In this document: piece after piece, positions 7,604-55,600 of the stretch
How positions within the stretch are numbered: the stretch's first letter is position 1
Layout: each line of letters opens with the position of its first letter
DNA from: Thermodesulfobacteriota bacterium
GTDB taxonomy: Bacteria; Desulfobacterota_D; UBA1144; Nemesobacterales; Nemesobacteraceae
Assembly (NCBI GenBank): GCA_965220925.1
Contig: OZ244851.1
Coordinates: 4,410 to 68,409, forward strand
Direction of reading: 5' to 3'
DNA length: 64,000 bases
Notes under the pieces: model-generated
Database searches by the model: none
Told to the model about the DNA's origin: nothing
Seen by the model: the letters and a program-made list of their open reading frames with translations, nothing else
Position numbers and translations under genes: made by a program

Positions 7604-8059
7604 ATGAAAACCGTATGCAGTCATCCTACCGCTCACAGAGATTATATATTTGAGGAAAAATACGAAGCCGGTTTAGTATTGAAGGGTTCCGAAGTTAAAT
7701 CTCTAAGAGATGGGAACGCAAGCGTAAAAGAGAGTTTTGTGCTTATAAGGGGAAACGAAGCCAAGCTGATCAATTGTTACATAGCTCCATACACCGCCGC
7801 TAACGTTTTCAACCACGAGCCCACAAGAGAAAGGAAACTTCTTCTGAACTCTCACGAGATAAAAAGACTGATTGGAAAAACCAGTATTAGGGGATATACT
7901 TCAGTTCCTCTAAAAATTTATTTTAAAAACGGCTTTGCGAAACTTGAATTCGCTCTTGCCAGAGGCAAGAAGACGAGAGATAAAAGAGAGGATATCAAAC
8001 GTCGCGAGGCGGAAAGAGATATGCAGAAAGCCGTAAAACGATCTTTGAAACGTTCATAA
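7604..8059 (+). CDS. smpB: SsrA-binding protein
   Basis: 151-aa ORF with SmpB signature (GSEVKSLR, basic C-terminal tail). Immediately followed by the tmRNA gene. Confidence 0.9.
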   Translation: MKTVCSHPTAHRDYIFEEKYEAGLVLKGSEVKSLRDGNASVKESFVLIRGNEAKLINCYIAPYTAANVFNHEPTRERKLLLNSHEIKRLIGKTSIRGYTSVPLKIYFKNGFAKLEFALARGKKTRDKREDIKRREAERDMQKAVKRSLKRS

Positions 8060-8064
8060 GTAAG

Positions 8065-8415
<351 letters not shown>

Positions 8416-22726: not shown

Positions 22727-23782
22727 GTGAAAACTCTCGAAGGTAAGACGGCGGGAATAACGGGGGCGACGGGTTTTATCGGAGGCAAGCTTGCGCAAAG
22801 ACTCGTAAGCGACGGTTGTTCGATAAAGTGCCTCGTTAGAGAAACGAGCGATACCGAAGGACTGCGTCGTCTGGGCGCCGAACTCGTTTGCGGAGACTTA
22901 ACAGATCCGGAGTCGTTAAGCGATCTTCCCAAAGAATGCGATTACGTCTTCCATCTTGCTTCCAAAGTTTCGGACTGGGGACCCAGAGAAGAGTTCTTCG
23001 GGGAGAACGTCGTCGCCACGAACACCCTTCTTGATTCCTGCCTAGAAGCTGGAGTGAAAAGATTTATCTACATGAGTTCCTCAACCGTGATTTGGAACGC
23101 TTCGCTTTTCTCAACTCCCAATCTCTCGAACATAGACGAAACTTACCCATACCCGAAAAGCCATCATAATTTCTACAACGAAACCAAAGCCATTTCGGAG
23201 AGACTGGTAAGGGAGTATAACGGAAAAGGAGGTCTTGAAACGGTGATTTTGAGACCGTCCAATGTCTGGGGAGCTGGAGATACGGTCATACTTCCGAGAA
23301 TAGCCGAAGCCTCCCTGAAGGGAATTCTCGTGAACATGGGTTTCGGAAAGAAAGTCGTTTCGCCATGCCATGTGCTTAACTTGGTTTACGCGACGATTCT
23401 TTCGGCCCTTTCCCCGGTTGCCTCCGGCAACATTTACTTCGTAAACGACGGGATTCATATCGACAACCGCCGTTTTGTCTTCGATCAGCTTAAATCCATA
23501 GGTATTGAATGGAAGCCGGCGCTCACGGTGCCCTACGCGCTCGGATATTCCGTCGCTTTCATTCTTGAGAAAATTTTCGAACTTATGGGATCGAAAAAAC
23601 CACCGGTGCTCACGCGCTTCGGAGTCTCCGCTCTTTCGAAAAGCAGAACCTACAGTATAGAAAAAGCGAAGGAAGATTTGGGATACGAACCGGTATGCGG
23701 CTACGAGGAAGGAATGAGAGAGCTTTCCGACTGGATTTCCCAGATGGGGGGTTACGAAAAACTTGTCGCAAAAGGAAGATAA
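22727..23782 (+). CDS. NAD-dependent epimerase/dehydratase (SDR superfamily, 3-beta-HSD-like)
   Basis: 351-aa ORF with a GTG start. Rossmann motif GITGATGFIGGKL and a YxxxK catalytic region (YNETK). Confidence 0.75.
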   Translation: MKTLEGKTAGITGATGFIGGKLAQRLVSDGCSIKCLVRETSDTEGLRRLGAELVCGDLTDPESLSDLPKECDYVFHLASKVSDWGPREEFFGENVVATNTLLDSCLEAGVKRFIYMSSSTVIWNASLFSTPNLSNIDETYPYPKSHHNFYNETKAISERLVREYNGKGGLETVILRPSNVWGAGDTVILPRIAEASLKGILVNMGFGKKVVSPCHVLNLVYATILSALSPVASGNIYFVNDGIHIDNRRFVFDQLKSIGIEWKPALTVPYALGYSVAFILEKIFELMGSKKPPVLTRFGVSALSKSRTYSIEKAKEDLGYEPVCGYEEGMRELSDWISQMGGYEKLVAKGR

Positions 23783-23783
23783 G

Positions 23784-24506
23784 ATGCCCCGAGGCGATTT
23801 TGAAATAGAAGCTAGAGGTCTTCGCAAGCGCTTCGGGTCCTTCGCGGCGCTTAAGGGAGTGACGCTTGAAGTTGAAAAAGGACGGTTTCTCTGCGTTTTC
23901 GGTCCCAACGGGGCGGGGAAATCAACGCTGCTTTCCATCTTGGCGACGTTTATGAAACCCAGCGGGGGAGAAGCGTTTGTCGGCGGTTTCGACGTTTTGC
24001 GGGAAAGGTCTAAAGTAAGAAAGCTCGCCGGTTTCATATCGCACCATACGATGCTTTACGAAAACCTCACCGCGTTGGAAAACTTAAGATTCATAGGGGC
24101 TTTTTACGATACGCCGGATCTTGAAGACAGATGTTCGGATATTTTGCGAAAAGTTGGGCTTTATTCAAAGAAAAACTCGCCCGTAAGTTCTCTTTCTTTC
24201 GGAATGCGCAAGCGTCTTGCGATCGCCAGAACTTTGATTCACGATCCCGGGATATTTTTTCTCGACGAACCCTACAGCGGACTTGATTACTCGGGAGCGG
24301 CCATGCTTACGTCGATACTTGAATCGGTGAAGGAAGATAAAACCGTGATCATGACGACTCATAACGTTTACGAAGGACTTTCCCTGTGCGACAAAGTCGC
24401 GATTCTAAATCGTGGAGAGGTGGTCTACTCCTGCCAGAGTAATCCCGGAAGCCTTGAATTTCAAAAAATCTACGCTTCCCGAATCGCAAACGAAGACGCT
24501 CGATGA
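23784..24506 (+). CDS. ccmA: Heme exporter ABC ATP-binding protein CcmA
   Basis: Walker A GPNGAGKST, ABC signature LSFGMRKRL and Walker B FFLDEP. First gene of a ccmABCDEF series. The start is taken at ATG 23784 behind an AAGGAAG RBS rather than the overlapping upstream ATG. Confidence 0.7.
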   Translation: MPRGDFEIEARGLRKRFGSFAALKGVTLEVEKGRFLCVFGPNGAGKSTLLSILATFMKPSGGEAFVGGFDVLRERSKVRKLAGFISHHTMLYENLTALENLRFIGAFYDTPDLEDRCSDILRKVGLYSKKNSPVSSLSFGMRKRLAIARTLIHDPGIFFLDEPYSGLDYSGAAMLTSILESVKEDKTVIMTTHNVYEGLSLCDKVAILNRGEVVYSCQSNPGSLEFQKIYASRIANEDAR

Positions 24507-25201
24507 GAAAAATACTTTTGATATTCAAAAAAGATCTTACGATCGAGTGGCGCTCGAAACAGCTTTTGCCCACGATGTTTGTGTTCTCGCTTCTGCTGCT
24601 TTTGATTTTTAACGTCGCTTTCGAGTTCCGCTCGCAGATAAATTCCCGGACGCTTTCGGCCGTTATGTGGGCGACATTTATTTTCTCCGGACTTTTCGCT
24701 CTCGCAAGATCTTTTTCCCTCGAAAAGGAAAACAACGCTTTTTTGTTTCTTCTCCTCACTCCGGTGGATAGAAGTTTTATCTATCTCGGGAAGCTCCTAT
24801 CGAACTTGGTCATGGTGCTGCTTTCGGAACTTTTCATAATTCCGCTTTTCTTTCTGTTTTTTCTTTCCTCTTCAGACCTGGTCTCGATTTCCCTGGCGGA
24901 CGCGCTTCTTCCTTTCTTCGGAGTCGTGGCGCTTGGAACCTTGGGTTTCGTAGCGCTCGGCACTTTTTTTTCTTCAATGGCGTTCAATACGAAGCTTCGA
25001 GACATGATGCTTCCCCTGCTGGTTTTTCCCCTGATCATACCCGTGGTGATAACTTCGGTTGGGATATGCTCTTCGATACTGGAAGGAAAGCCGTTTAGTC
25101 ACTATGCTTTTTCTTTGCAGGTACTTATTTCCTTTGATATAATCTTCGTCCTTTTATGCTCCGTTTTGTTCGAGTATCTTGTTGAAGATAGCGTAGATTA
25201 A
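24503..25201 (+). CDS. ccmB: Heme exporter membrane protein CcmB
   Basis: 232-aa polytopic membrane ORF overlapping the ccmA stop. Size and hydropathy match CcmB, and the gene context agrees. Confidence 0.7.
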   Translation: MRKILLIFKKDLTIEWRSKQLLPTMFVFSLLLLLIFNVAFEFRSQINSRTLSAVMWATFIFSGLFALARSFSLEKENNAFLFLLLTPVDRSFIYLGKLLSNLVMVLLSELFIIPLFFLFFLSSSDLVSISLADALLPFFGVVALGTLGFVALGTFFSSMAFNTKLRDMMLPLLVFPLIIPVVITSVGICSSILEGKPFSHYAFSLQVLISFDIIFVLLCSVLFEYLVEDSVD

Positions 25202-25220: not shown

Positions 25221-25871
25221 ATGAGAAAAATACTGTTTTTCGCCACTTTCGCGTTAATGGTTCTTTGCACCTGGATGACTCTTTTCTACGCGCCCACGGA
25301 AACCGTGATGGGAGATGTGCAGAGAATTTTCTATTTTCATATGGGAACCGTGTGGGCGGCGACTGTGGCGTTCACGGTGGTTTTTGTAGCGAGCGTGGCA
25401 TATCTTTTGAAGGAGACGGCGAAATGGGATACGCTTGCTTACTGCTCGGCGGAGATAGGTGTTTTGCTGCTTACCCTTACAATCGTAACCGGAAGCATAT
25501 GGGCGAAACCCGTCTGGGGAACCTGGTGGACATGGGATCCGCAGCTTACCACAACTTTTATTCTCTGGGTTCTCTACGCGGTTTATCTGGTTTTGCGTTC
25601 CGGAGCGGGCAATCGTGGGAAAAAGGCCAGATACTCCGCTATTTTCGCCATAATAGCGTATGTGGATCTTCCCTTGGTTTACATTTCCGCTCGTATAAAA
25701 AGAGGCATATCTCCCGTGGTCTTCGGACCTGGGGGAGGGGGAATAGACCCAGCGATGATGCACGCTCTTTTGGTCTGTTTGCTGGGATTCACGCTTCTTT
25801 TCGTCTTGCTTTTAAGCGAAAGGATAAGAGTAATGAACATGGAGAATGCGATTAATTCGCAAAACGAGTGA
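25221..25871 (+). CDS. ccmC: Heme exporter protein CcmC (WWD domain)
   Basis: 216-aa ORF with the tryptophan-rich WGTWWTWDPQLTT motif diagnostic of CcmC/CcmF family heme-handling proteins. Confidence 0.8.
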   Translation: MRKILFFATFALMVLCTWMTLFYAPTETVMGDVQRIFYFHMGTVWAATVAFTVVFVASVAYLLKETAKWDTLAYCSAEIGVLLLTLTIVTGSIWAKPVWGTWWTWDPQLTTTFILWVLYAVYLVLRSGAGNRGKKARYSAIFAIIAYVDLPLVYISARIKRGISPVVFGPGGGGIDPAMMHALLVCLLGFTLLFVLLLSERIRVMNMENAINSQNE

Positions 25872-25879
25872 GGTTATAA

Positions 25880-26020
25880 ATGGAATATTTTTTCTGGTCC
25901 AACGTGGTGGTTTGGAGCTCTCTTGTAGCTTACGCGTTTTATCTTTACGTAAAGTCGAATTCCGCGAGAAAAAAACTTCGCTCTTTTGAAAGCGATCGCC
26001 CAAGCGGAGGTGAAAGTTGA
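25880..26020 (+). CDS. ccmD: CcmD-like small membrane protein (46 aa)
   Basis: Unlisted short ORF. Translation MEYFFWSNVVVWSSLVAYAFYLYVKSNSARKKLRSFESDRPSGGES has a single TM helix and basic tail, fits the ccmC-ccmE gap exactly, and overlaps the ccmE start by 4 nt. Confidence 0.45.
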   Translation: MEYFFWSNVVVWSSLVAYAFYLYVKSNSARKKLRSFESDRPSGGES

Positions 26021-26427
26021 GAGGCAAGTTTAAGTTTATCGTCCCTATTTTCGTAATCGTGTCTTTAATCGGCTGGCTTGTTTTCGCGGGGATTAAGGAT
26101 TCCATGGTTTACTACATAACCGTCGACGAACTGCTTGAGAGTGTCCCCGAAGTTTACGATAGCAAGGTAAGAGTCTCTGGAACGGTCGTTCACGGATCGA
26201 TTCGAAACGATGTGGACGATTCCCTCCGGTTCGAGATAGCCGACGGCCAAGGTAAGGTGGGAGTTGAGTACAGCGGCGTGATTCCCGACATATTCACCGA
26301 CGGAGTCGAGGCGGTTGTGGAAGGAACGCTTTCCGAAGAAAATGTTTTTAAGGCGGATCTTCTTCTCGCGAAATGTCCCACCAAGTATGAATCGGAAGAA
26401 GGTCCCTACCGGAGAAAAGAAGGTTAG
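26017..26427 (+). CDS. ccmE: Cytochrome c-type biogenesis heme chaperone CcmE, variant with Cys in place of the heme-binding His (LAKCPTKY)
   Basis: 136-aa ORF with an N-terminal membrane anchor and OB-fold core (VSGTVVHGSI, FEIADGQGKVGVEYSGVIPDIFTDGVEAVVEG). The C-terminal motif is LAKCPTKY, where canonical CcmE has LAKHDENY. Confidence 0.8.
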   Translation: MRGKFKFIVPIFVIVSLIGWLVFAGIKDSMVYYITVDELLESVPEVYDSKVRVSGTVVHGSIRNDVDDSLRFEIADGQGKVGVEYSGVIPDIFTDGVEAVVEGTLSEENVFKADLLLAKCPTKYESEEGPYRRKEG

Positions 26428-26429
26428 CA

Positions 26430-28391
26430 ATGTCCGATCTCGGAAGCGTTTCAGTACTCCTTTCCTTCTTTATCGCAATTTACGGGTTGGGGGCGAGCGT
26501 ATTTGCAGCCAGAAGCGGGAGTCTTCCGTTTGCCAAAAGTGGCGCAAACGCTCTTTTGTCAGTCGCTTTTCTGCTTTGCGTCGCCGTTGTCTGTCTTCTT
26601 TACGAACTTGTGACGCTTGATTTTTCAATCAGGTACGTGGCGCTTAACACAAGTACCGATCTTCCGACAATATACAGAATAACGGCTCTTTGGGCGGGTC
26701 AGGCGGGTTCCCTTCTCCTTTGGAGCTTCGTTCTATCCGTCTACGCCTCTTTTGTGGTGCTTAAAAGCCGGAGAAATCGTGAAAATTCTTACGTAATCGC
26801 CGTTTTGTGCGCGGTTTCGCTTTTCTTCCTGTTTCTTATAGCCTACGTGGAGGATCCGTTTTCCAAACTCGGCGTCTCGGTTGATCAGGGAAGAGGGCTT
26901 AACCCCATACTTCAAAACGGCTACATGGCGATTCACCCGATCACTCTTTACGTCGGATACGTCGGCATTACCGTTCCGTTCGCTTTCGGCGCCGCGGCTT
27001 TGCTAAATGGAAGCTTGGGAGACGAATGGATAAGAAATTCGAGAAAATACGCTCTTTTTTCCTGGGTGTTTCTCTCCGCCGGCCTTTTCCTCGGCGCCAG
27101 ATGGGCTTATCTTGAACTCGGCTGGGGAGGGTACTGGGCGTGGGATCCCGTTGAGAACGCGGCTTTTATGCCCTGGCTTACCCTTACGGCGTTTATTCAC
27201 TCGGTTATGATTCAGGAGAGAAAAGGGATGCTTAGAAAGTGGAATCTGATTCTGCTTATAACCACCTTCTTCCTTTCCATATTCGGTACTTTCATAACCA
27301 GAAGCGGAGTGGTGTCTTCGGTTCATTCTTTCGCGCGCTCGGATATAGGTCCGCTTTTTCTGGGATTTATGGTTGTCATTCTTCTTTTTTCCTTCTCTCT
27401 TCTTCTCTACAGATCAAACGATCTTAAAAGCGAAGAGAAATTCGATTCCGTGCTTTCCAGGGAAAGCGCTTTTCTTTTTAACAATCTTCTTTTCCTGGCG
27501 GCGGCGTTCACCGTGTTTCTGGGCACGATTTTCCCTATATTGTCGGAAGCGTTCACGGGAGAAAAAATCTTGGTGGGACCTCCTTATTTCAACGCCGTTG
27601 GCGTGCCCATAGGGCTTGTGCTTATTCTGCTTATGGGAGCGGGGCCGCTTATATCGTGGAGAAAGGCTTCTTCGAAAAATTTAAGAAGAAATTTTCTTTT
27701 TCCCGCGGCGGTTTTCTTCGTGACGCTTCTTGCGCTTTTTCTCTCGGGAATGCGAAACCCCGTGGCGCTTTTAAGCTTCTCGCTTTGCGGCTTTGTTTGC
27801 GCTACGGTGTTTCTTGAATATTTTCGAGGTGTCGGGATTCGCGTCTCGAGAGGAGAAAATCCGCTTCGGGCTTTTTTCAACCTCGTCTCAAGAAACCGAA
27901 GACGCTACGGCGGATATATAGTTCATCTGGGAGTGGTGCTGGTAGTGGCGGGAATCACGGCTTCTTCGTTGTTCGTAACGCAGAAGGAAGTGGTTTTGGA
28001 GAAAGGAGATTCGTTTTCTCTCGGAAGATACGATTTGATATTTGGAGGATTAAGCTATATTTCAAACGACGCTAAAGACGGATTTTCCGCGGAATTCTCC
28101 GTCCGAAGCGAAGGTAAAAATCTCGCTAAGATGTATCCGGAGAAAAATATTTACAAGTACGAAGGAAACAGAGAGATAAACCGGGAGACCGAAGTGGCGC
28201 TTCGTTCCACGATAAGAGACGATCTTTATCTTATACTCTCCGAAGTGGCTCCGAGCGGGAGGGTAAACATAAGGGCTCTTTTAAATCCGATGGTTAACTG
28301 GATATGGATGGGCGGAGCGGTTATCGTGGCGGGGGCGATAGTTTCGATGTGGCCTCGTCGCGGGGGAAAAAAGAAGGAGGCCTCGGCGTGA
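26430..28391 (+). CDS. ccmF: Cytochrome c-type biogenesis protein CcmF (heme lyase component)
   Basis: 653-aa polytopic ORF with the WWD motif GWGGYWAWDPVEN and conserved His-containing loops. Confidence 0.85.
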   Translation: MSDLGSVSVLLSFFIAIYGLGASVFAARSGSLPFAKSGANALLSVAFLLCVAVVCLLYELVTLDFSIRYVALNTSTDLPTIYRITALWAGQAGSLLLWSFVLSVYASFVVLKSRRNRENSYVIAVLCAVSLFFLFLIAYVEDPFSKLGVSVDQGRGLNPILQNGYMAIHPITLYVGYVGITVPFAFGAAALLNGSLGDEWIRNSRKYALFSWVFLSAGLFLGARWAYLELGWGGYWAWDPVENAAFMPWLTLTAFIHSVMIQERKGMLRKWNLILLITTFFLSIFGTFITRSGVVSSVHSFARSDIGPLFLGFMVVILLFSFSLLLYRSNDLKSEEKFDSVLSRESAFLFNNLLFLAAAFTVFLGTIFPILSEAFTGEKILVGPPYFNAVGVPIGLVLILLMGAGPLISWRKASSKNLRRNFLFPAAVFFVTLLALFLSGMRNPVALLSFSLCGFVCATVFLEYFRGVGIRVSRGENPLRAFFNLVSRNRRRYGGYIVHLGVVLVVAGITASSLFVTQKEVVLEKGDSFSLGRYDLIFGGLSYISNDAKDGFSAEFSVRSEGKNLAKMYPEKNIYKYEGNREINRETEVALRSTIRDDLYLILSEVAPSGRVNIRALLNPMVNWIWMGGAVIVAGAIVSMWPRRGGKKKEASA

Positions 28392-28741: not shown

Positions 28742-30028
28742 ATGAGTTATAAAACGATAAAAGCGTTTCTTCGCGTTTTTTTAATTCTTTTCCCGCTTCT
28801 TTCCGCTACGGCGATTCATTCCGCTTCGGCTCTTGAGTCGGGAGAGAAAATTTTCACAAGCGGCAAGTGTTCACGGTGCCACACGCTTGGACGGGGGAGG
28901 TTCGTCGGTCCTGATCTTTTGGGCGTGGGCGAGAAATACTCAGAAGACGATTTGGTGAAGTGGGCTAAAAATCCGGAGCTTATCTATTCCGAAAGCGAAA
29001 GAAAACCGGTAAACGAAGGCTATCCCCCGATGCCTCCCGCGAATCTTTCAGAAGAAGACGCGCGGCTGGTCGTCGATTACATCTTAAACTATTCGCCCCC
29101 AGCCGGTCTTTCTAAAAGCGGTACCGTTAAGGGTTCTGTGAAAAACCTTACTTCGGCCGATACCGAAGCGGGAATTGACGTTATTCTTACTTCGTATCTG
29201 GGCGATATTGGGAAAAACCGACGTTTCGCAAAGACGGATTCGCTTGGAAGATTCTCTTTTTCCGGCCTCGAGTGGGACAGAAGCCATGAACTTACGCTTT
29301 TTTATCAGGAAGTTCGCTACGTTTCGCGAAAACTGGTCTTTTCTCCCGAAAAAGACGAAATCACGGTAGACCTTCCGGTATATGAAGCTTCCGGCTTGGA
29401 TGAAAATATATCCGTCGACGAGTTAAACGTAATCGTCTATCCGAATGACGAAAGTACTTCGGTAAGCGTTACTTTTCTTTACTCTTTTCAAAACTCGGGA
29501 AATACGGTTTTTACCGGAAAGTCGGTGGATTCGGATATCGTAACTCTGGCTTTTCCCGTCCCAAAAACCGCGCGGGACGTCTCTTTTTCCGAAAACATCC
29601 CGCCCGACTCGGTTGTAAGAAAAAACAAAAGAATTTATAGCCAACTTCCGGTTCTTCCCGGGACGAAAAGGGTCGCGCTTAGCTATTCGATTCCGATTTC
29701 CAGGTTCGGCGGAAGTTTTCCCCTGAGCTTTGATTACGAGGCGGAGAATCTTTCGGTGTTTGTGAGAGAGACCGCTCTCGGACTTAAGATCTCTAAGTTC
29801 GGCGCAATCGAAGAGAAGGTCACGATTCACGGCGAGGAGTTTTCCAAATACGAAAGATCGAACGTGAAGCCCGCGAGTTTCAATGTCTTCATACCGATCG
29901 GGTCGCTTATTAAAAGAGGTTTCGGGAAATATTCTTACGTCTTACTCTTTTTCGGGTTCGTATTTTCGGCGGCTTTGTACTTTTTCTTCTCTAAAAAATT
30001 CTCTTTGCCGCGCGCGGGGAAGAATTGA
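28742..30028 (+). CDS. Membrane-associated c-type cytochrome: N-terminal class I mono-heme domain (CSRCH) fused to a ~300-aa beta-rich domain and C-terminal TM anchor
   Basis: 428-aa ORF. Signal peptide, then the heme-binding site GKCSRCHTLGRGRFVGPDL with a downstream Met-rich YPPMPP candidate axial ligand. A carboxypeptidase-regulatory-like stretch (GTVKGSV...DSLGRFSFSGL) follows. Hydrophobic C-terminal segment YVLLFFGFVFSAALYFFF. Confidence 0.65.
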   Translation: MSYKTIKAFLRVFLILFPLLSATAIHSASALESGEKIFTSGKCSRCHTLGRGRFVGPDLLGVGEKYSEDDLVKWAKNPELIYSESERKPVNEGYPPMPPANLSEEDARLVVDYILNYSPPAGLSKSGTVKGSVKNLTSADTEAGIDVILTSYLGDIGKNRRFAKTDSLGRFSFSGLEWDRSHELTLFYQEVRYVSRKLVFSPEKDEITVDLPVYEASGLDENISVDELNVIVYPNDESTSVSVTFLYSFQNSGNTVFTGKSVDSDIVTLAFPVPKTARDVSFSENIPPDSVVRKNKRIYSQLPVLPGTKRVALSYSIPISRFGGSFPLSFDYEAENLSVFVRETALGLKISKFGAIEEKVTIHGEEFSKYERSNVKPASFNVFIPIGSLIKRGFGKYSYVLLFFGFVFSAALYFFFSKKFSLPRAGKN

Positions 30029-30080: not shown

Positions 30081-31247
30081 ATGCAGAAAAAACCGTCTTC
30101 CTTGCTCAACGGAAGTTTCGTGCTCGTCACGTTTCTCGGATGCGTTTACTTTTTTACTTTTCACTCGTTTTTGCTTCTTCCCATTCGAATTTTGGATCTG
30201 GGAGGCACGGAAAAGACCGTCGGGTTCGTAATGGGCGTCGCGGGACTCAGCACTTTGTTTCTAACTCCTTACGCGGGTCACGTGACCGACAAGTACGGAA
30301 AGAAGCTTTTGGTGTTGGTGGGATTCGCTTTGCTTGCCGTCTCTACCTTTCCGCTCGTGTTTATGGAGAAAATAAACTACCTGTACTATGTGGTAAGAAT
30401 AATTCACGGATGTTCGTTTTCTCTTTTCTTCGTCGCCGCGGGAGCTCTTACCGTCGATGTTTCAAGCGAAGAGAGAAGGGCTCAGGCGCTCGGCATATAC
30501 GGCGTTTTCACCATAATAAACTACGCGATCGCTCCCTATGTCGGCTCCGCGGTTATAGAAAGCTTCGGGTTCGATTCTTTTGTATTTCTACTTACCGCCA
30601 CGGCGATTTCGGGACTGTGTCTTTCTTTTTTGATATCGGAGAAAAAAAGCTCTCCTCGGGAGAAAAACGCGGGACCGGGATATTTCGACTGTCTTGGCGA
30701 CAAAGCGGTTTTCGTTTCCTCCGCCACTCTTTTTATATGCGGCGCGGCGTTTATAACGACTTTTAACTTTATCTCGGTTTTTTCACTTTCGATAAACGTG
30801 GAGAACTTTGAATTTTACTTTCTGTCGTATACCGTCTCGGTGCTCGCCGTCAGGCTGTTTTTCGGCTGGGTTCCCGACAGGTACGGCAAGAGGAAAGTGG
30901 CGTCTCCGTTTGTTTTCTTTCTGGGACTGAGCGTTTTCACTCTTGGTTTCGCGCAAAACGCGACTCTTCTCGTTCTTTGCGCGATAGTGTTTGGAGTGTC
31001 GCACGGATTCGTGTACCCCTCGATATACTCGATCATAATAGATTCGATCGTAAAAGAGTCGAGGGCCAGAGCTTTCGCCATAAGTAGCGTTTCGTTTACG
31101 GGCGGCGGCATGCTGGGATCTTTCGCTTTCGGAGTTGTCGCGGAATATTTCGGGTTCGAAACGATGTTTTTTTCGATGGGTATTCTCGTGTTTCTGGGTT
31201 TTGCGGTTTTCGCCACAAGTTCGGTTTTAAAAGATAGAGAAATATGA
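30081..31247 (+). CDS. MFS family transporter
   Basis: 388-aa ORF with about 12 TM segments. The conserved MFS loop motif GHVTDKYGKK lies between TM2 and TM3. Confidence 0.7.
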   Translation: MQKKPSSLLNGSFVLVTFLGCVYFFTFHSFLLLPIRILDLGGTEKTVGFVMGVAGLSTLFLTPYAGHVTDKYGKKLLVLVGFALLAVSTFPLVFMEKINYLYYVVRIIHGCSFSLFFVAAGALTVDVSSEERRAQALGIYGVFTIINYAIAPYVGSAVIESFGFDSFVFLLTATAISGLCLSFLISEKKSSPREKNAGPGYFDCLGDKAVFVSSATLFICGAAFITTFNFISVFSLSINVENFEFYFLSYTVSVLAVRLFFGWVPDRYGKRKVASPFVFFLGLSVFTLGFAQNATLLVLCAIVFGVSHGFVYPSIYSIIIDSIVKESRARAFAISSVSFTGGGMLGSFAFGVVAEYFGFETMFFSMGILVFLGFAVFATSSVLKDREI

Positions 31248-32058: not shown

Positions 32059-33579
32059 TTATCTCGATGAACCGTACAAACGCACTATTTCCGCTTTAAG
32101 CTTCTGAGTGGTGTGAATATCGGCTATCGCCGCGGGAGAAAAACCGAAGTCCTCAAGCGTGGCGGCGGTTATGGGTCCTATGCAGGCAAAGCGCGTTTTA
32201 CGGAAAAGTTCGGGATTTTCCCCCAGAAGAGAAAAGAAATTCGTTACCGTGGATGAACTTGTGAACGTAACGAGATCTATTTGTCCGGCTTTGAATTTTC
32301 TTTTAATCGTACGGAGCTTTTCCTCTCCGTATTCGGGAACGAGCGTTTCGTAAACGGGAAGAACTTCTACCGAAGCTCCCATTCGTCGAAGAGCGGAGGG
32401 AAGAAATTCTCTTGCCTCAAGCGCTCTTGGAATGAGTATTTTTTTGTCCTTAACGTTAAGGTTTTCGGCGAGAGAGGCTATTCCTTCAGCCGTATAGCTT
32501 TCGGGCAGGTAATCGGCGTTTACGTTGTACTTTGAAAGCTCTTGCGAGGTTTTCTCCCCTATGGATATTATTTTTTTACCTCCAAGGTTCCTCGAGTCTT
32601 TCCCGTTTGACGCCAGCATGTCGAAATAGTGGCTTACTCCGTTTGCGCTTGTGAATATGAGAAAATCGTATTTCCCCGTATTGTCTATTGAAAGTTTCTG
32701 CTGTCGCGTCGCTCTTATAGGGCTTGTTTCGATTGTGGGAAATTCCACGGTCCGGGCTCCGCACGACCCGAGAAGTCTTGCGAACTTAGCCGCCGCTTTC
32801 TTCTCTCTGGTTATCATCACGGTTTTTCCGAAAAGAGGCTTTTTCTGATACCATCCCGTTTCCCGCGAGACGGAGGCTATCTTTCCGACCACTATGGTTG
32901 CCGGGGTTTGCACGTCGATACCTTCGATTTTCTCGCTTATATCGCAGAGCGTTCCAAAAACCGATAATTGTTCGGGAAGTGTTCCGCACGATATGACCGC
33001 TACCGGAGTTGAAGGCTCTCTTCCAAGACTTATCAGTTTGTTCATTATGTATTCTATGTTGTGAAGTCCCATTAGGAATATCATCGTCTCTATTCGCGCG
33101 GGGTCGCAGTCAAAATCCTCTCCTTGGCTCTGATGTCCGGTAAATACGGCGAAGGACGAGTTGTATTCTCTGTGAGTAACGGGAATTCCCGCGTAGGCAG
33201 GCACTGCGGTAATCGAACTTACTCCGGGAACGATTTCAATCGAAATGCCGCTTTTAATAACCACTTCGGCCTCCTCTCCTCCTCTTCCGAAGACGAAAGG
33301 ATCTCCTCCCTTGAGCCTCGCCACCGTTTTGCCCTCAAGCGCCTTGCTTATCAGAAGTTCGTTTATGACACGTTGGGAAATATGCGTTTTTCCCGCCGCC
33401 TTGCCGGCGAAAATGAGTTCCGCTTCCGAGTTGCAAAATCTAAGAATATCCGGATTTACGAGGGAATCGTAGATTACCACCTGAGCCCGCTTTAAAACCT
33501 CTTTTCCTCTCAGCGTGAAAAGACCCGAATCTCCGGGTCCCGCGCCAACAAGATAGACTTTGCCTTTTTCCTCACTCAT
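32059..33579 (-). CDS. cobA: Bifunctional uroporphyrinogen-III C-methyltransferase / uroporphyrinogen-III synthase (CobA-HemD fusion)
   Basis: 506-aa ORF. The N-terminal half has SUMT motifs (VYLVGAGPGD, GDPFVFGRGGEE). The C-terminal ~250 aa has the HemD fold. Confidence 0.8.
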   Translation of the reverse strand: MSEEKGKVYLVGAGPGDSGLFTLRGKEVLKRAQVVIYDSLVNPDILRFCNSEAELIFAGKAAGKTHISQRVINELLISKALEGKTVARLKGGDPFVFGRGGEEAEVVIKSGISIEIVPGVSSITAVPAYAGIPVTHREYNSSFAVFTGHQSQGEDFDCDPARIETMIFLMGLHNIEYIMNKLISLGREPSTPVAVISCGTLPEQLSVFGTLCDISEKIEGIDVQTPATIVVGKIASVSRETGWYQKKPLFGKTVMITREKKAAAKFARLLGSCGARTVEFPTIETSPIRATRQQKLSIDNTGKYDFLIFTSANGVSHYFDMLASNGKDSRNLGGKKIISIGEKTSQELSKYNVNADYLPESYTAEGIASLAENLNVKDKKILIPRALEAREFLPSALRRMGASVEVLPVYETLVPEYGEEKLRTIKRKFKAGQIDLVTFTSSSTVTNFFSLLGENPELFRKTRFACIGPITAATLEDFGFSPAAIADIHTTQKLKAEIVRLYGSSR

Positions 33580-46343: not shown

Positions 46344-46772
46344 TTACTTTCTCTGCGGATCTTTGTAAGAATGGATCGTTCGCAATATTATCACCGCGCC
46401 GATTAGAACGGAAAGCACGGGCAAAAGCCATAATATAATACTGAACCCTTTGGCGGGAGGGGATGCGAGAATCGTCTCTCCATAGCTTGAGACGAAATAA
46501 TCCACTATCTGTTCCTTCGTCTCTCCCTCGAGCAATTTCGTTTTTATAACGGCCCTCATGTCTCGGGCAAGTTGGGCGTTTGACTCCGCCACGCTTTGAC
46601 CCTCGCAAACAGGGCACATTAGTTCCGCGGAGATTTCGGCGATTCTGTCTTCCAAAGTGTCCGCGCTTGCGCAAAAGGGAATTAACAAAAGGAGCGGGAA
46701 AAAAAGAAGCTCGGCACTATGCATTTTGCGAAAAAGGCGACTCAAGTGTCTATAACTACTGAAGTTTTTCAT
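46344..46772 (-). CDS. ccmH: Cytochrome c-type biogenesis protein CcmH (CxxC apocytochrome reductant)
   Basis: 142-aa ORF with a signal peptide, the LMCPVCEGQSVAESNA redox motif (equivalent of LRCxxC) and a C-terminal TM segment. Overlaps the ccmG stop. Confidence 0.7.
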   Translation of the reverse strand: MKNFSSYRHLSRLFRKMHSAELLFFPLLLLIPFCASADTLEDRIAEISAELMCPVCEGQSVAESNAQLARDMRAVIKTKLLEGETKEQIVDYFVSSYGETILASPPAKGFSIILWLLPVLSVLIGAVIILRTIHSYKDPQRK

Positions 46773-47311
46773 TTGCCCGTACCCGCTCCGGCACCCCGAA
46801 GATAGTGCGTAATCATCTTTTCGGTAAGCGGTCCTCTGTGTCTGTTGGTGACAATTCCGTCGGGATTTATGAAAAATGTTTCCGGAACTCCCCCTATTCC
46901 GTAATCGAGGTGAATTCTGTTTTCCGGGTCGTAAACGTTGATAAACTTCTCTCCGAACGATTCTATGTACTTTTGCGCGCTTTTCATGTCATCCATTATG
47001 TTTATTCCTATGAATTCAACACGTTTGTTCGAAAACGACATATGCGCTTTCGCAAGTTCCGGAGCTTCTTCTTTGCAGGGGTTGCACCAGGAAGCCCAGA
47101 AATTCAAAAGCAGCGACTTTCCTCTAAAGTCGGAAAGCCTTACTTTTTCCCCTTCAAACGATTGCAGCGTGAAATCTGGGGCGGGTTTTCCGACGAGGAC
47201 GGAAGGAGTTTGAGCGTCTTTATTTCCGGCAAGTCCGGTCCAAAGGGAGTAAACCAGCAACGCCGTGAGTGAAAAAGCGACGGCGACCGAGATAACAGTA
47301 GATGTTTTCAT
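46769..47311 (-). CDS. ccmG: Thiol:disulfide interchange protein CcmG/DsbE (TlpA-like thioredoxin)
   Basis: 180-aa ORF. N-terminal membrane anchor, thioredoxin active site WASWCNPCKEE and a GVPETFFI cis-Pro region. Confidence 0.75.
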   Translation of the reverse strand: MKTSTVISVAVAFSLTALLVYSLWTGLAGNKDAQTPSVLVGKPAPDFTLQSFEGEKVRLSDFRGKSLLLNFWASWCNPCKEEAPELAKAHMSFSNKRVEFIGINIMDDMKSAQKYIESFGEKFINVYDPENRIHLDYGIGGVPETFFINPDGIVTNRHRGPLTEKMITHYLRGAGAGTGK

Positions 47312-49663: not shown

Positions 49664-52600
49664 GTGGGTTGGAGTATTTTGCTTTACTCGAAAATTGTTT
49701 CGTCGATTAGACGTGGTTTCAGGTGCGTAGTCGACTCGTTTGTCGTATTTTCCCTTGTGGCAGTATTTCTTTTGTTTTTGACCTCGGGGGCTCAATACGC
49801 GAAAGCGCAGTCTGTCCCCGCCAAGCCTGATCATTTCACCGTGGGAGTGTCTGGACTCGGTTTTAACGGTCAAGCCCAATTAAACTGGAGAAACCCGAAT
49901 AACCCCAACATAACGAAGTATCAGGTACGGCATAAGGCTGGAACGAGCTTCACATCCTTAGATAGTTGGGTGGATATTCCAGGTAGCGGTGCCAGCACAA
50001 GGAATCATCTTATAACAAATCTGACATTTGGAACGACCTATGCGTTCCAGGTACGGGCGGTGAATGGTAACGGAAACGGAGCGGCGAGCGATGTGCTAAC
50101 GGCGGCACCGACGCCATTGCCAGGTCCCAATGCTGCTGGCAGATTTGTTCATACACCAACAAATGTGGTAGTGGGACTTCCCGGGTTTAACAAGGTCAGT
50201 GTCAGTTGGGATTGGGATGATCCCATATGTTCCGCGCTTTCCGGTGAGCCCTACCTATATGAGGTTGTATACAGGAAGACTACAGGGGGAGTAGCTTGGG
50301 ATACGAACGATAGGGAGACCGACGCAGGTTCTTACGAAATTTACAGCGGAGCAACAACACTAGTGTTTCCTCTGGATGGATTTTTTGGAGAACCAGTATT
50401 GGATCCAGGGGAGTACGAAATCAGCGTTAACTACGCTGGTGGTAATCCCCCATGCAAATCAGGACCTACTGTGGCCGCATTTGGTTCTTGGACCTCTCCG
50501 GTCAGGGTCATGGTACCGGAGCTGTTAAAACTAACAGGGACTCCAGTAACGTTAACGGAGGGAGGTAGTGCCGAGACGTTCAGTGTGGCGTTGAGTGAAG
50601 AGCCGACGGGTAATGTGACGGTAACGGTAACGAGCAATGACACGGGAGCGGCGACGGTATCACCGAGCAGTCTTACGTTCACGCCCACAAACTATTCAAC
50701 GGCACAGGACGTAACTGTAACGCCTGTAGACGATAACGACGCGTTGGATGAGAGTGTATCGGTAAGTTTGAACGCTTCGGGAGGCGGATACGACGGAGCG
50801 GGTAAATATGTAACAGTAACGGTAACGGATGATGAGGATACGACGTTAGAACTTACGGGAACGCCTGTAAGCGTAACGGAGGGCGGAGCGGCGGGAACGT
50901 TCAGCGTGAAGTTAAGCGCGGAGCCGACGGAGACAGTAACGGTAACGGTAACAAGCGACGACACGGGAGCGGCGACGGTATCACCCGATACGTTAACGTT
51001 CACAACTACAGACTACGCGACGACGCAGGATGTAACTGTAACGCCAGTAGACGATAACGACGCGTTGGATGAGAGTGTAACGGTAAGTCTTGACGCTACT
51101 GGAGGGGGCTATGACGACTCGGATGAAGATGTAGCTGTAACGGTGACGGATGATGAGGATACGACGTTAGAACTTACGGGTACGCCAGTAAGCCTAACGG
51201 AAGGCGGAGCGGCCGGAACGTTCAGTGTGAAGTTAAGCGCGGAGCCGACGGAGACAGTAACTGTAACGGTAACAAGTGACGACACGGGAGCGGCGACGGT
51301 ATCACCCGGAACATTGACGTTCACTGTGGCAAACTACGCGACCACGCAAGACGTAACTGTAACGCCGGTAGACGATAACGACGCGTTGGATGAGAGTGTA
51401 ACGGTAAGTCTTGACGCTACTGGAGGGGGCTATAACGACTCGGATGAAGATGTAGCTGTAACGGTAACGGATGATGAGGATACGACATTAGAACTTACGG
51501 GTACGCCTGTAAACATAACGGAGGGAGGAGCGGCCGGGACGTTCAGTGTGAAGTTAAGCGCGGAGCCAACGGCAACGGTAACGGTAACAGTAACAAGTGA
51601 CGACACAGGAGCGGCGACGGTCTCACCCGGAACATTGACGTTCACTGTGGCAAACTACGCGACCACTCAGGATGTAACTGTAACGCCGGTAGACGATAAC
51701 GACGCGTTGGACGAGAGCGTAACGGTAAGTCTTGACGCAAGTGGAGGAGGGTATAACGACTCGGATGAGGATGTAGCTGTAACGGTAACGGATGACGAGG
51801 ATACGACATTGACGCTAAGCGTCGCTACTGTGTCTGTAACGGAGGGAGGAGCGGCCGGGACGTTCAGTGTGAGTTTAAGCGCTGAGCCGACGGCAACAGT
51901 AACTGTAACGGTAACAAGTGACGACACAGGGGCGGCGACTGTATCACCCGGGACATTAACGTTCACAACTACAAACTACGCGACCACTCAGGATGTAACG
52001 GTAACGCCAGTGGATGATAACGACGCGTTGGATGAGAGCGTAACGGTAAGCCTTGACGCAAGTGGAGGGGGCTATAACGACTCGGATGAGGATGTAGCTG
52101 TAACGGTAACGGATGATGAGGATACGACGTTAGAACTTACGGGAACTCCTGTAAACATAACGGAGGGAGGAGCGGCCGGGACATTCAGTGTGAAGTTAAG
52201 CGCTGAGCCAACGGCAACAGTAACGGTAACGGTAACAAGCGACGACACGGGAGCGGCGACGGTATCACCCGGGACATTAACGTTCACGACTACAAACTAC
52301 GCGACGACGCAGGACGTAACTGTAACGCCAGTGGATGATAACGACGCGTTGGATGAGAATGTAACGGTAAGTCTTGACGCAAGTGGAGGAGGATATAACG
52401 ACTCGGATGAGGATGTAGCTGTAACGGTAACGGATGACGAGGATACGACATTGACGCTAAGCGTCGCTACTGTGTCTGTAACGGAGGGAGGAGCGGCCGG
52501 GACATTCAGTGTGAAGTTAAGCGCGGAGCCGACGGCAACAGTAACTGTAACGGTAACAAGTGACGACACAGGGGCGGCGACGGTATCACCCGGGACATTA

Positions 52601-55600
52601 ACGTTCACAACTACAAACTACGCGACCACTCAGGACGTAACTGTAACGCCGGTAGACGATAACGACGCGTTGGATGAGAGCGTAACGGTAAGCCTGGACG
52701 CAAGTGGAGGGGGATATAACGACTCGGATGAGGATGTAGCTGTAACGGTAACGGATGATGAGGATACGACGTTAGAACTTGCGGGTACGCCTGTAAGCGT
52801 AACGGAGGGAGGAGCGGCCGGGACATTCAGTGTGAAGTTAAGCGCTGAGCCAACGGCAACAGTAACGGTAACGGTAACAAGTGACGACACGGGAGCGGCG
52901 ACGGTCTCACCCGGAACATTAACGTTCACAACTACAAACTACGCGACCACTCAGGACGTAACTGTAACGCCAGTGGATGATAACGACGCGTTGGATGAGA
53001 ATGTAACGGTAAGCCTTGACGCAAGTGGAGGCGGGTATAACGACTCGGATGAGGATGTAGCTGTAACGGTAACGGATGACGAGGATACGACGTTAGAACT
53101 TACGGGAACTCCTGTAAACATAACGGAGGGAGGAGCGGCCGGGACATTCAGTGTGAAGTTAAGCGCGGAGCCAACGGCAACGGTAACTGTAACAGTAACA
53201 AGCGACGACACGGGAGCGGCGACGGTATCACCCGGAACATTAACGTTCACTGTGGCAAACTACGCGACCACACAGGACGTAACGGTAACGCCGGTAGATG
53301 ATAACGACGCGTTGGATGAGAATGTAACGGTAAGCCTTGACGCAAGTGGAGGCGGGTATAACGACTCGGATGAGGATATAGCTGTAACGGTAACGGATGA
53401 TGAGGATACGACGTTAGAACTTGCGGGTACGCCCGTAAACATAACGGAGGGAGGAGCGGCCGGGACGTTCAGTGTGAAGTTAAGCGCGGAGCCAACGGCA
53501 ACGGTAACTGTAACGGTAACGAGTGACGACACGGGAGCGGCGACGGTCTCACCCGGAACATTAACGTTCACAACTACAAACTACGCGACGACGCAGGACG
53601 TAACTGTAACGCCGGTAGATGATAACGACGCGTTGGATGAGAATGTAACGGTAAGTCTAGACGCAAGTGGAGGAGGATATAACGACTCGGATGAGGATGT
53701 AGCTGTAACGGTAACGGATGACGAGGATACGACATTGACGCTAAGCGTCGCTACTGTGTCTGTAACGGAGGGAGGAGCGGCCGGGACGTTCAGTGTGAGT
53801 TTAAGCGCTGAGCCTACGGCAACAGTAACTGTAACGGTAACAAGTGACGACACAGGGGCGGTGACGGTATCACCCGGGACATTAACGTTCACAACTACAA
53901 ACTACGCGACCACTCAGGACGTAACTGTAACGCCGGTAGATGATAACGACGCGTTGGATGAGAATGTAACGGTAAGCCTGGACGCAAGTGGAGGGGGGTA
54001 TAACGACTCGGATGAGGATGTAGCTGTAACGGTAACGGATGACGAGGATACGACGTTAGAACTTACGGGAACGCCTGTAAACATAACGGAGGGAGGAGCG
54101 GCCGGGACGTTTAGTGTGAAGTTAAGCGCTGAGCCAACGGCAACAGTAACTGTAACGGTAACAAGTGACGACACAGGGGCGGCGACGGTATCACCCGGAA
54201 CATTAACGTTCACAACTACAAACTACGCGACCACTCAGGACGTAACGGTAACGCCGGTAGATGATAACGACGCGTTGGATGAGAATGTAACGGTAAGTCT
54301 TGACGCAAGTGGAGGAGGGTATAACGACTCGGATGAGGATGTAGCTGTAACGGTAACGGATGACGAGGATACGACATTGACGCTAAGCGTCGCTACTGTG
54401 TCTGTAACGGAGGGAGGAGCGGCCGGGACGTTCAGTGTGAGTTTAAGCGCTGAGCCGACGGCAACAGTAACTGTAACGGTAACAAGTGACGACACAGGGG
54501 CGGCGACGGTATCACCCGGGACATTAACGTTCACAACTACAAACTACGCGACCACTCAGGATGTAACGGTAACGCCAGTGGATGATAACGACGCGTTGGA
54601 TGAGAGCGTAACGGTAAGCCTTGACGCAAGTGGAGGCGGGTATAACGACTCGGATGAGGATGTAGCTGTAACGGTAACGGATGATGAGGATACGACGTTA
54701 GAACTTACGGGAACTCCTGTAAACATAACGGAGGGAGGAGCGGCCGGGACATTCAGTGTGAAGTTAAGCGCTGAGCCAACGGCAACAGTAACTGTAACGG
54801 TAACAAGTGACGACACGGGAGCGGCGACGGTATCACCCGGGACATTGACGTTCACAACTACAAACTACGCGACGACGCAGGACGTAACTGTAACGCCGGT
54901 AGATGATAACGACGCGTTGGATGAGAATGTAACGGTAAGTCTTGACGCAAGTGGAGGAGGATATAACGACTCGGATGAGGATGTAGCTGTAACGGTAACG
55001 GATGACGAGGATACGACATTGACGCTAAGCGTCGCTACTGTGTCTGTAACGGAGGGAGGAGCGGCCGGGACATTCAGTGTGAGTTTAAGCGCTGAGCCGA
55101 CGGCAACAGTAACTGTAACGGTAACAAGTGACGACACAGGAGCGGCGACGGTCTCACCCGGGACATTAACGTTCACAACTACAAACTACGCGACCACTCA
55201 GGATGTAACGGTAACGCCAGTGGATGATAACGACGCGTTGGATGAGAGCGTAACGGTAAGCCTGGACGCAAGTGGAGGGGGATATAACGACTCGGATGAG
55301 GATGTAGCTGTAACGGTAACGGATGATGAGGATACGACGTTAGAACTTACGGGAACTCCTGTAACGATAGTAGAAGGAGGAAACGCGGGAGCGTTCAGCG
55401 TGAGGTTAAGCGCTGAGCCAACGGCAACAGTAACTGTAACAGTAACAAGCGACGACACTGGAGCGGCGACGGTATCACCCGGGACATTAACGTTCACAAC
55501 TACAAACTACGCGACGACGCAGGATGTAACGGTAACGCCGGTAGACGATAACGACGCGTTGGATGAGAATGTAACGGTAAGCCTGGACGCAAGTGGAGGG

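Follow-up and report, generated by a model that had tools for sequence, protein, structure and literature searches.

We analysed a 64,000-nucleotide stretch of contig OZ244851.1 (assembly GCA_965220925.1, Thermodesulfobacteriota bacterium), hereafter called the window, which contains a set of genes for System I cytochrome c maturation (Ccm). Between positions 23763 and 30028, the genes run in the order ccmA, ccmB, ccmC, a ccmD-like gene, ccmE, ccmF, a gene for a CcmI-like protein and a gene for a cytochrome c protein, and are followed by a gene for an MFS transporter (Table 1). A ccmG-like/ccmH unit lies about 20 kb downstream of ccmE. Two proteins of this set are our main subject: the heme chaperone CcmE, which has a Cys at the position of His130 of Escherichia coli CcmE, and the heme-handling protein CcmC, in which a Ser takes the place of the second periplasmic heme-ligand His.

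The ccmE open reading frame (ORF) comprises 136 codons and begins with a TTG located 6 nt 3' of a GGAGGTG ribosome-binding site; its 5' end overlaps the stop of the small ccmD-like ORF. The C-terminus of the protein is ...LLAKCPTKYESEEGPYRRKEG, and the ORF translation closes with ...ADLLLAKCPTKYESEEGPYRRKEG. The protein matched the Pfam family CcmE (PF03100) with E=2.6e-28 (98.7 bits; gathering score, 24.6), and it is already annotated as CcmE in public records. Its score against the NCBIfam equivalog models for CcmE was below the cut-off (96.5 versus 126).

When CcmE was aligned to PDB sequences with phmmer, the segment 'lakC ptkY' fell opposite 'LAKH DENY' of the E. coli protein (8ce8_E, 1sr3), which places C120 (codon TGT, 26374-26376) opposite H130 and Y124 (codon TAT, 26386-26388) opposite Y134. 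The residue that defines a His-type CcmE, a His at the E. coli H130 position, is thus a Cys in the window protein. The same Cys aligned with the Cys in 'MTKCP' of Desulfovibrio vulgaris CcmE (2kct), and Shewanella CcmE (1j6q) was also among the PDB sequences aligned. C120 is the only Cys of the protein. Inspection of the whole 136-aa sequence found no alternative His in the tail, and because the sole His, H59, sits in the beta-barrel of the OB fold and is variable in relatives, no tail His can replace Cys120. An earlier note on this DNA had read the protein as a Cys-for-His CcmE with the Tyr kept, and the alignments to both the E. coli and the Desulfovibrio protein confirm the register of the Cys. 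A heme-binding His elsewhere in the tail, or a Cys and Tyr out of register, was looked for, and neither was found.

An AlphaFold model of CcmE, built with 16 homologues, consisted of a helix (residues 5-29), OB-fold strands extending to residue 118 and a low-confidence tail, in which the predicted local distance difference test score (pLDDT) was below 50 for residues 124-136. The N-terminal membrane helix, OB-fold barrel and C-terminal tail that make up the CcmE architecture are therefore all found in the model. The best Foldseek matches were 8ce8_E, 1lm0, 1sr3 and 1j6q; 2kct ranked ninth. As judged by these alignments, the window protein belongs to the known CxxxY (CcmE*) type, with the motif CPTKY.

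The motif is strongly conserved among relatives. K-C-xxx-Y was found in all of the 120 best CcmE homologues from a collection of 5.8 billion proteins, and LLAKCPTKYE, with Tyr124 included, was invariant in a 16-sequence alignment reaching down to 56% identity. LLAKCPTKY was likewise present in all 80 related loci (81 CcmE matches, 42-81% identical to the window copy) fetched from species-representative genomes, although these counts describe conservation within a clade, are not an unbiased census and do not constitute independent evidence, because LAKCPTKY was one of the two search peptides with which the loci were retrieved. The named relatives of the window CcmE come from Candidatus Dadabacteria and Thermodesulfobacteriota metagenome-assembled genomes (MAGs), and contigs as long as 1.56 Mb carry an identical CcmE. 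In the NCBI taxonomy, Candidatus Dadabacteria form a class of Thermodesulfobacteriota. Since this is also the phylum of Desulfovibrio, Dadabacteria are an unsurprising home for a Cys-type CcmE.

Such proteins are well represented in the literature. In a 2011 review of System I (PMC3601427), the variant is called 'System I*' and its discovery in archaea and Desulfovibrio is attributed to Allen et al. 2006. According to the same review, later genomes supplied 'many more examples' of Cys-type CcmE, with delta-proteobacteria as the largest group and with Chloroflexi and Firmicutes also among them, most having the motif CPSKY (PMC3601427). The view that the variant has so far been described in archaea and Desulfovibrio-type bacteria, which the earlier note took, is therefore outdated. 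Its expectation that a Cys-type CcmE alters the chemistry of the heme-chaperone adduct is supported by published work on other organisms, and would apply here by analogy.

The CcmC protein is also unusual. In E. coli CcmC, P-His1 (H60) and P-His2 (H184, in loop 5) hold the heme of the WWD site, and with either H60A or H184A neither holo-CcmE nor cytochrome c is made (PMC9616876, Table 1 therein). The mobile P-His2 loop is seen as key to binding and release in all three members of the family (PMC10663686; PMC10457321). In the window CcmC, the segment WGTWWTWD is conserved and H40 (25338-25340) lies opposite E. coli H60 in an alignment to 7f02_C, and the residue opposite H184 is Ser164 (25710-25712). 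Loop 5 reads DVPLVFVSARYWRS-I-H-PSVLGSQGGGMEPEM in Desulfovibrio-type CcmC and DLPLVYISARIKRG-I-S-PVVFGPGGGGIDPAM in the window. This part of the alignment is unambiguous and gapless (RSIHPSV versus RGISPVV), and E. coli H184 stands at the same distance from a conserved LP as Ser164 of the window protein.

The substitution is not confined to the window. Among the 74 clade CcmC proteins from the related loci, the P-His2 column contained Ser in 73, and H40 was present in 73. No compensating His was conserved in these proteins beyond H40 (H32 was found in 58 of the 74 and H181 in 42), and six of them contain only one His overall. Public records name the clade proteins 'CcsA' or 'hypothetical protein'. 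A phmmer search of 1.84 billion cluster representatives with CcmC gave 6,492 matches. Of the 150 nearest representatives, which are 35-53% identical to the query for most full-length matches, 125 had His in both columns and 6 had Ser at P-His2; the others that lacked the P-His2 His were mostly truncated or poorly aligned sequences. A Chloroflexota MAG (GCA_016219275.1, locus L084), which was picked through its Ser-type CcmC and not through CcmE, combines this CcmC (ARIWRGISPVLF) with a Cys-type CcmE (VLAKCPSKY). The fetched stretches of the nearest His-type representatives (L085-L087) and of the Ser-type representative P0140 (L088) contain no ccmE. In L088 (5725-7259), ccmABC, with the Ser-type CcmC, is directly followed by an opposite-strand gene for a Y1-type transposase instead of ccmD-ccmE, and the ccm operon may be disrupted or rearranged there.

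Loss of P-His2 as a general trait of Cys-CcmE systems was considered and ruled out, since the Desulfovibrio-type CcmC keeps the His. On the sequences compared, the loss is a conserved trait of a subtype found in Dadabacteria and at least one Chloroflexota lineage. In the literature on CcmC H184/P-His2, the coverage of which was incomplete, we found no mention of a natural CcmC that lacks P-His2. The ccmABCDF genes, which the earlier note had regarded as otherwise ordinary, are thus not so in the case of ccmC.

The window also encodes CcmH and a CcmG-like thioredoxin. The CcmH protein scored E=4.5e-33 and 113.9 bits in Pfam, against a cut-off of 25, and its LMCPVC motif aligned with LRCPKC of Pseudomonas aeruginosa (2hl7) and E. 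coli (2kw0) CcmH. Since the homologues have a length of 132 aa, translation of ccmH may actually start at the TTG of codon 10 (46745). The ccmG-like gene lies directly upstream with a 4-nt overlap, and the pair is situated between miaA and a gene for trehalose-phosphate synthase/phosphatase. The product of the ccmG-like gene matched NCBIfam ResA (8.8e-39) and dsbE TIGR00385 (1.6e-29), both under the curated cut-offs. A six-frame search of the window with the regular expression [LIVMF]R[CS]xxC found no CcmH motif, an artefact of a pattern too strict for LMCPVC.

LMCPVC was present in all 120 CcmH homologues among the matches listed, several of which are named CcmH [Candidatus Dadabacteria]. The longest sequences bearing CcmH homologues are equal in length to the chromosomes that carry Cys-type CcmE (e.g. 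2,276,242; 1,860,458; 2,441,076; 2,012,872 and 1,544,120 bp), which indicates that close CcmH homologues share Dadabacteria chromosomes with Cys-CcmE and that the combination is clade-wide. As originally defined (Allen 2006; Goddard 2010), System I* lacks CcmH and, in Desulfovibrio, also CcmG, in the account given in PMC3601427; about one-third of the bacteria with Cys-type CcmE possess CcmH (PMC3601427). By its gene content, the window system falls into this third and not into the CcmH-less type of Desulfovibrio and archaea. The suggestion that the organism uses the variant System I therefore stands for CcmE and fails for the system as a whole.

The gene order of the ccm operon, as determined by tblastn of the window proteins, was the same across the 80 related loci, in which ccmF was present in 78, ccmC in 76, ccmB in 64, the ccmD-like gene in 62 and ccmA in 61. 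In those 62, the ccmD-like gene likewise lies between ccmC and ccmE. Its product matched TIGR04391 with E=6.3e-4 and 19.7 bits, under the cut-off of 24, and CcmA scored just below the cut-off of NCBIfam TIGR01189 (127.9 versus 131.6 bits). CcmF contains exactly four histidines, H169, H257, H299 and H499, all of which aligned to histidines of Thermus thermophilus CcmF (6zmq, 371 bits). The protein keeps the WWD domain and the four conserved histidines of the heme lyase, two of them periplasmic and two transmembrane. Scans for promoter and terminator consensus sequences between 22000 and 31500 found no excess over shuffled sequence and were uninformative on the operon boundaries. A gene of the NAD-dependent epimerase/3-beta-HSD family overlaps the start of ccmA by 20 nt and occurs 5' of ccmA in 50 of the 80 related loci, an arrangement that suggests its co-transcription with the ccm operon. 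Two kilobases downstream of the operon lies a gene for a fused uroporphyrinogen-III methyltransferase (TP_methylase)/synthase (HemD), so that a tetrapyrrole-synthesis gene neighbours the genes for heme attachment.

Table 1. Cytochrome c maturation genes and other features of the window
Feature	Position	Strand	Basis
ccmA, ATPase subunit of heme-release ABC complex	23763-24506	+	Pfam ABC_tran 1.4e-28
ccmB, membrane subunit	24503-25201	+	Pfam CcmB PF03379 2.8e-21
ccmC, WWD-domain heme-handling protein	25221-25871	+	Pfam Cytochrom_C_asm 2.5e-34
ccmD-like small membrane protein, 46 aa	25880-26020	+	NCBIfam CcmD_alt_fam TIGR04391
ccmE, Cys-type heme chaperone	26017-26427	+	Pfam, phmmer, AlphaFold and Foldseek
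ccmF, heme lyase	26430-28391	+	Pfam CcmF_C 6e-68 and Cytochrom_C_asm
CcmI-N-like small membrane protein, 117 aa	28388-28741	+	weak TIGR03142 match
428-aa protein with N-terminal monoheme cytochrome c domain	28742-30028	+	Pfam Cytochrom_C 4.8e-8
MFS transporter	30081-31247	+	
ccmH, apocytochrome thiol-disulfide protein of heme lyase complex	46344-46772	-	Pfam CcmH PF03918
CcmG/DsbE/ResA-like membrane-anchored thioredoxin (WASWCNPC)	46769-47311	-	Pfam AhpC-TSA/Redoxin/Thioredoxin
NAD-dependent epimerase/3-beta-HSD family gene	22727-23782	+	
Fused uroporphyrinogen-III methyltransferase/synthase	32059-33579	-	TP_methylase, HemD
smpB and tmRNA gene	7604-8415	+	
tmRNA	8064-8415	+	Rfam 183.5 bits
Giant ORF, >4,780 aa, running past the 3' end of the window	49664-64000	+	fibronectin type III matches
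Tandem repeats within giant ORF	50548-64000		

Two further genes accompany ccmF. The 117-aa CcmI-like protein is predicted to have a single membrane helix at its N-terminus, and a further helical segment carries the motif DIELDRDMGKLSEEDY, which corresponds to the family motif DIE[LF]D..[LM]GKL[ST]..DY. The window copy matched TIGR03142 (CcmI) weakly (E=0.093, 13 bits versus a cut-off of 29.3), and this model was matched by 11 of 24 orthologues, the best with E=2e-6. No TPR domain, the periplasmic part of CcmI that binds apocytochrome, was matched in the protein or its family. A C-terminal zinc ribbon (CxxCG...FCSKCG) was found in 10 of the 24 aligned relatives, none of them from the closest group of the window copy, and it suggests that this end of the protein is cytoplasmic. 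The gene lies 3' of ccmF in 68 of the 80 related loci, with relatives in L033-L074, and two Chloroflexota homologues, encoded at 2380-2892 of L084 and 746-1159 of L087, likewise end in a zinc ribbon. We tentatively regard the 117-aa protein as a TPR-less relative of the CcmI N-terminal module.

The 428-aa protein contains a Cytochrom_C domain (residues 32-116) with the motif CSRCH at about 28868, the only CxxCH in those reading frames of the window that are 80 aa or longer. The remainder of about 300 aa matched no Pfam family, and a C-terminal hydrophobic stretch resembles a membrane anchor. The gene was found downstream in 73 of the 80 related loci, and 70 of these copies have exactly one CxxCH. 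The protein is likely a client of the Ccm system or an accessory protein. Chloroflexota proteins occupy the same place at 3111-4358 of L084 and 1156-2364 of L087; the L084 counterpart is without a cytochrome c domain, and the L087 counterpart has no Pfam match on record.

The other window genes are housekeeping genes, encoding an AAA ATPase, UbiE, MTHFR, alanine racemase, SmpB, CTP synthase, an RNase II-type protein, citrate synthase, UvrB, RimP-NusA-IF2, TruB, PNPase and MiaA, besides the trehalose-phosphate synthase/phosphatase. The smpB gene is directly followed by the gene for transfer-messenger RNA (tmRNA), with the tag peptide AEPINALAA. In the giant ORF at the 3' end of the window, a likely signal or anchor sequence at the N-terminus and fibronectin type III matches precede the repeats, 41.9 tandem copies of a 321-nt (107-aa) unit with 90% identity, in a region with GC up to 0.53 and strong GC and AT skew. 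The ORF probably encodes a huge surface adhesin-like protein.

Among the systems to which we compared the window, the Desulfovibrio System I* shares the CcmE family and fold, the motif K-C-P-S/T-K-Y, the presence of CcmD and CcmF, and the phylum. However, the motif is CPTKY in the window and CPSKY in Desulfovibrio-type proteins, the gene order is ccmABCDEF rather than ccmEFABCD (ccmEFABCDI in D. desulfuricans), the window keeps ccmH and a ccmG-like gene, and P-His2 of CcmC is Ser in the window and His in the Desulfovibrio type. In two Desulfovibrio-type metagenomic loci (L081 and L082, with CcmE ...MTKCPSKY), the order is ccmE-F-A-B-C-D followed by a TPR protein, in the place taken in the window by the TPR-less CcmI-like protein, and there is no ccmH.

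The E. coli System I (PDB 1SR3, 8CE8 and 7F04) resembles the window system in comprising CcmA-F, a CcmG or CcmG-like protein and CcmH, in the CcmE architecture and the Tyr134 equivalent, and in the CcmC WWD motif, P-His1 and all four CcmF histidines, which the window proteins keep. In contrast to E. coli, the window has Cys for His130 of CcmE and Ser for His184 of CcmC, a separate operon made up of its ccmG-like and ccmH genes lies about 20 kb away, and its CcmI part is a separate small protein without TPR. Methanosarcina acetivorans (CcmABCEF) shares the CxxxY motif, and the Cys is residue 120 of either protein. The archaeal systems are without CcmD, CcmH and CcmI, and Methanosarcina has a split CcmF, whereas the window has CcmD-like, CcmH and CcmI-N-like proteins and an unsplit CcmF.

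The Chloroflexota locus L084 is similar to the window in its Cys-CcmE and Ser-type CcmC, and also in having a CcmI-N-like protein after ccmF and then a protein of about 415 aa (X) that, on visual comparison, looks like the C-terminal part of the 428-aa protein. Unlike the window, its genes are ordered ccmE-F-I'-X-A-B-C-D, followed by genes for a thioredoxin, a glutaredoxin-like protein and CcdA; its CcmI-like protein keeps the zinc ribbon, and its X protein is the one that lacks the cytochrome c domain. No ccmH was found inside the 12.7 kb fetched from this locus. Taken as a whole, the window system is a mosaic, in which the chaperone chemistry of System I* is combined with retained CcmH and CcmG-like proteins and with a CcmC that has lost its second heme-ligand His.

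We consider it very probable that the ORF encodes a functional, membrane-anchored Cys-type CcmE (CPTKY) of System I cytochrome c maturation in Candidatus Dadabacteria, because the register of the Cys and Tyr, the fold of the model, the conservation of KCPTKY, the conserved operon, the CcmF histidines, the presence of CcmH and the CcmG-like protein, and the literature all argue for it. By analogy with characterised systems, CcmC and CcmD would offer heme from the WWD site, on the outer side of the membrane, to CcmE, whose Cys120, on the low-confidence tail, would capture it. The bond to Cys120 would probably be covalent, to a vinyl group, with Tyr124 available as an iron ligand. CcmAB would then release holo-CcmE, and CcmF, CcmH, the CcmI-N-like protein and the CcmG-like thioredoxin would pass the heme on to apocytochromes with CxxCH, of which one is encoded downstream, with the thioredoxin keeping the cysteines reduced.

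Several observations weigh against this interpretation. The window CcmC is without P-His2, which is required for holo-CcmE in E. coli, and the E. coli loading mechanism is for this reason not transferable unchanged. No CcdA/DsbD was found within this window. In addition, the CcmG-like protein, CcmA, CcmC, CcmD and CcmE all score under the curated NCBIfam equivalog cut-offs, indicating divergence from the characterised proteins. These sub-threshold scores are also the one finding that would favor a decaying or non-functional CcmE with an incidental Cys, or one that binds heme at another residue. We regard this explanation as scarcely credible, given that the motif is invariant in homologues down to about 42% identity, that CcmE has no other Cys and its sole His is not conserved, and that the operon to which the gene belongs is intact and syntenic, its start codons overlapping stop codons. 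A minimal System I* of the Desulfovibrio and archaeal kind, with Cys-CcmE and without CcmH or a dedicated CcmG, would be consistent with the ccm operon itself, which contains neither gene, with the finding of no ccmH or ccmG within 8 kb of ccmE in the fetched related loci, and with the composition of L081 and L082. It is contradicted by the ccmH gene and the DsbE/ResA-like thioredoxin gene of the window and by the close CcmH homologues on the same Dadabacteria chromosomes as Cys-CcmE, and is therefore very unlikely.

A more serious alternative concerns the bond itself. The nature of the heme-Cys link, covalent or axial, is disputed even within Desulfovibrio: in the summary given in PMC3884852, D. 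vulgaris CcmE holds ferric heme non-covalently through C127, and covalent heme binding to D. desulfuricans CcmE is reported in the account of PMC3601427. The role of Cys120 might likewise be limited to axial thiolate ligation of a ferric heme that is carried non-covalently, and the loss of P-His2 from the clade CcmC frees a coordination position that a thiolate could fill. However, M. acetivorans requires C120 to form heme-stainable holo-CcmE and every one of its cytochromes c, and does not tolerate C120H (PMC9084895). Sequence data are equally compatible with the covalent and the axial mode. We hold the purely axial role to be possible but rather doubtful, and keep the covalent Cys-type chaperone as the preferred interpretation.

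The combination of Cys-CcmE with a CcmC that has a single ligand His raises a broader proposal, namely that Dadabacteria and at least one Chloroflexota lineage share a distinct System I subtype, in which, at the stage of the CcmC-heme-CcmE intermediate, the Cys120 thiolate or Tyr124 would act as the sixth ligand of the iron, or there would be no sixth ligand. A ligand donated by the chaperone is the simplest hypothesis for what takes over from P-His2. We put this forward tentatively and think it unlikely rather than probable that the chaperone supplies the ligand, because Desulfovibrio-type systems pair a nearly identical CcmE motif with an intact P-His2. If the subtype is real, the loading of holo-CcmE and its ATP-driven release would differ from the E. 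coli model, and the TPR-less CcmI-like protein, with its zinc ribbon in relatives, and the conserved membrane protein encoded after ccmF would belong to it.

Taken alone, the Cys-CcmE described here is of modest value, as an expected further lineage of a variant known since 2006. Its occurrence alongside CcmH and a CcmG-like protein again indicates that the chemistry of the Cys does not depend on losing those proteins. The single-His CcmC that accompanies it points to a System I subtype for which we found no description in the literature. A natural and widely conserved CcmC without P-His2 offers a direct test of the role of that His, and of whether the Cys or Tyr of the chaperone can take over ligation of the iron.

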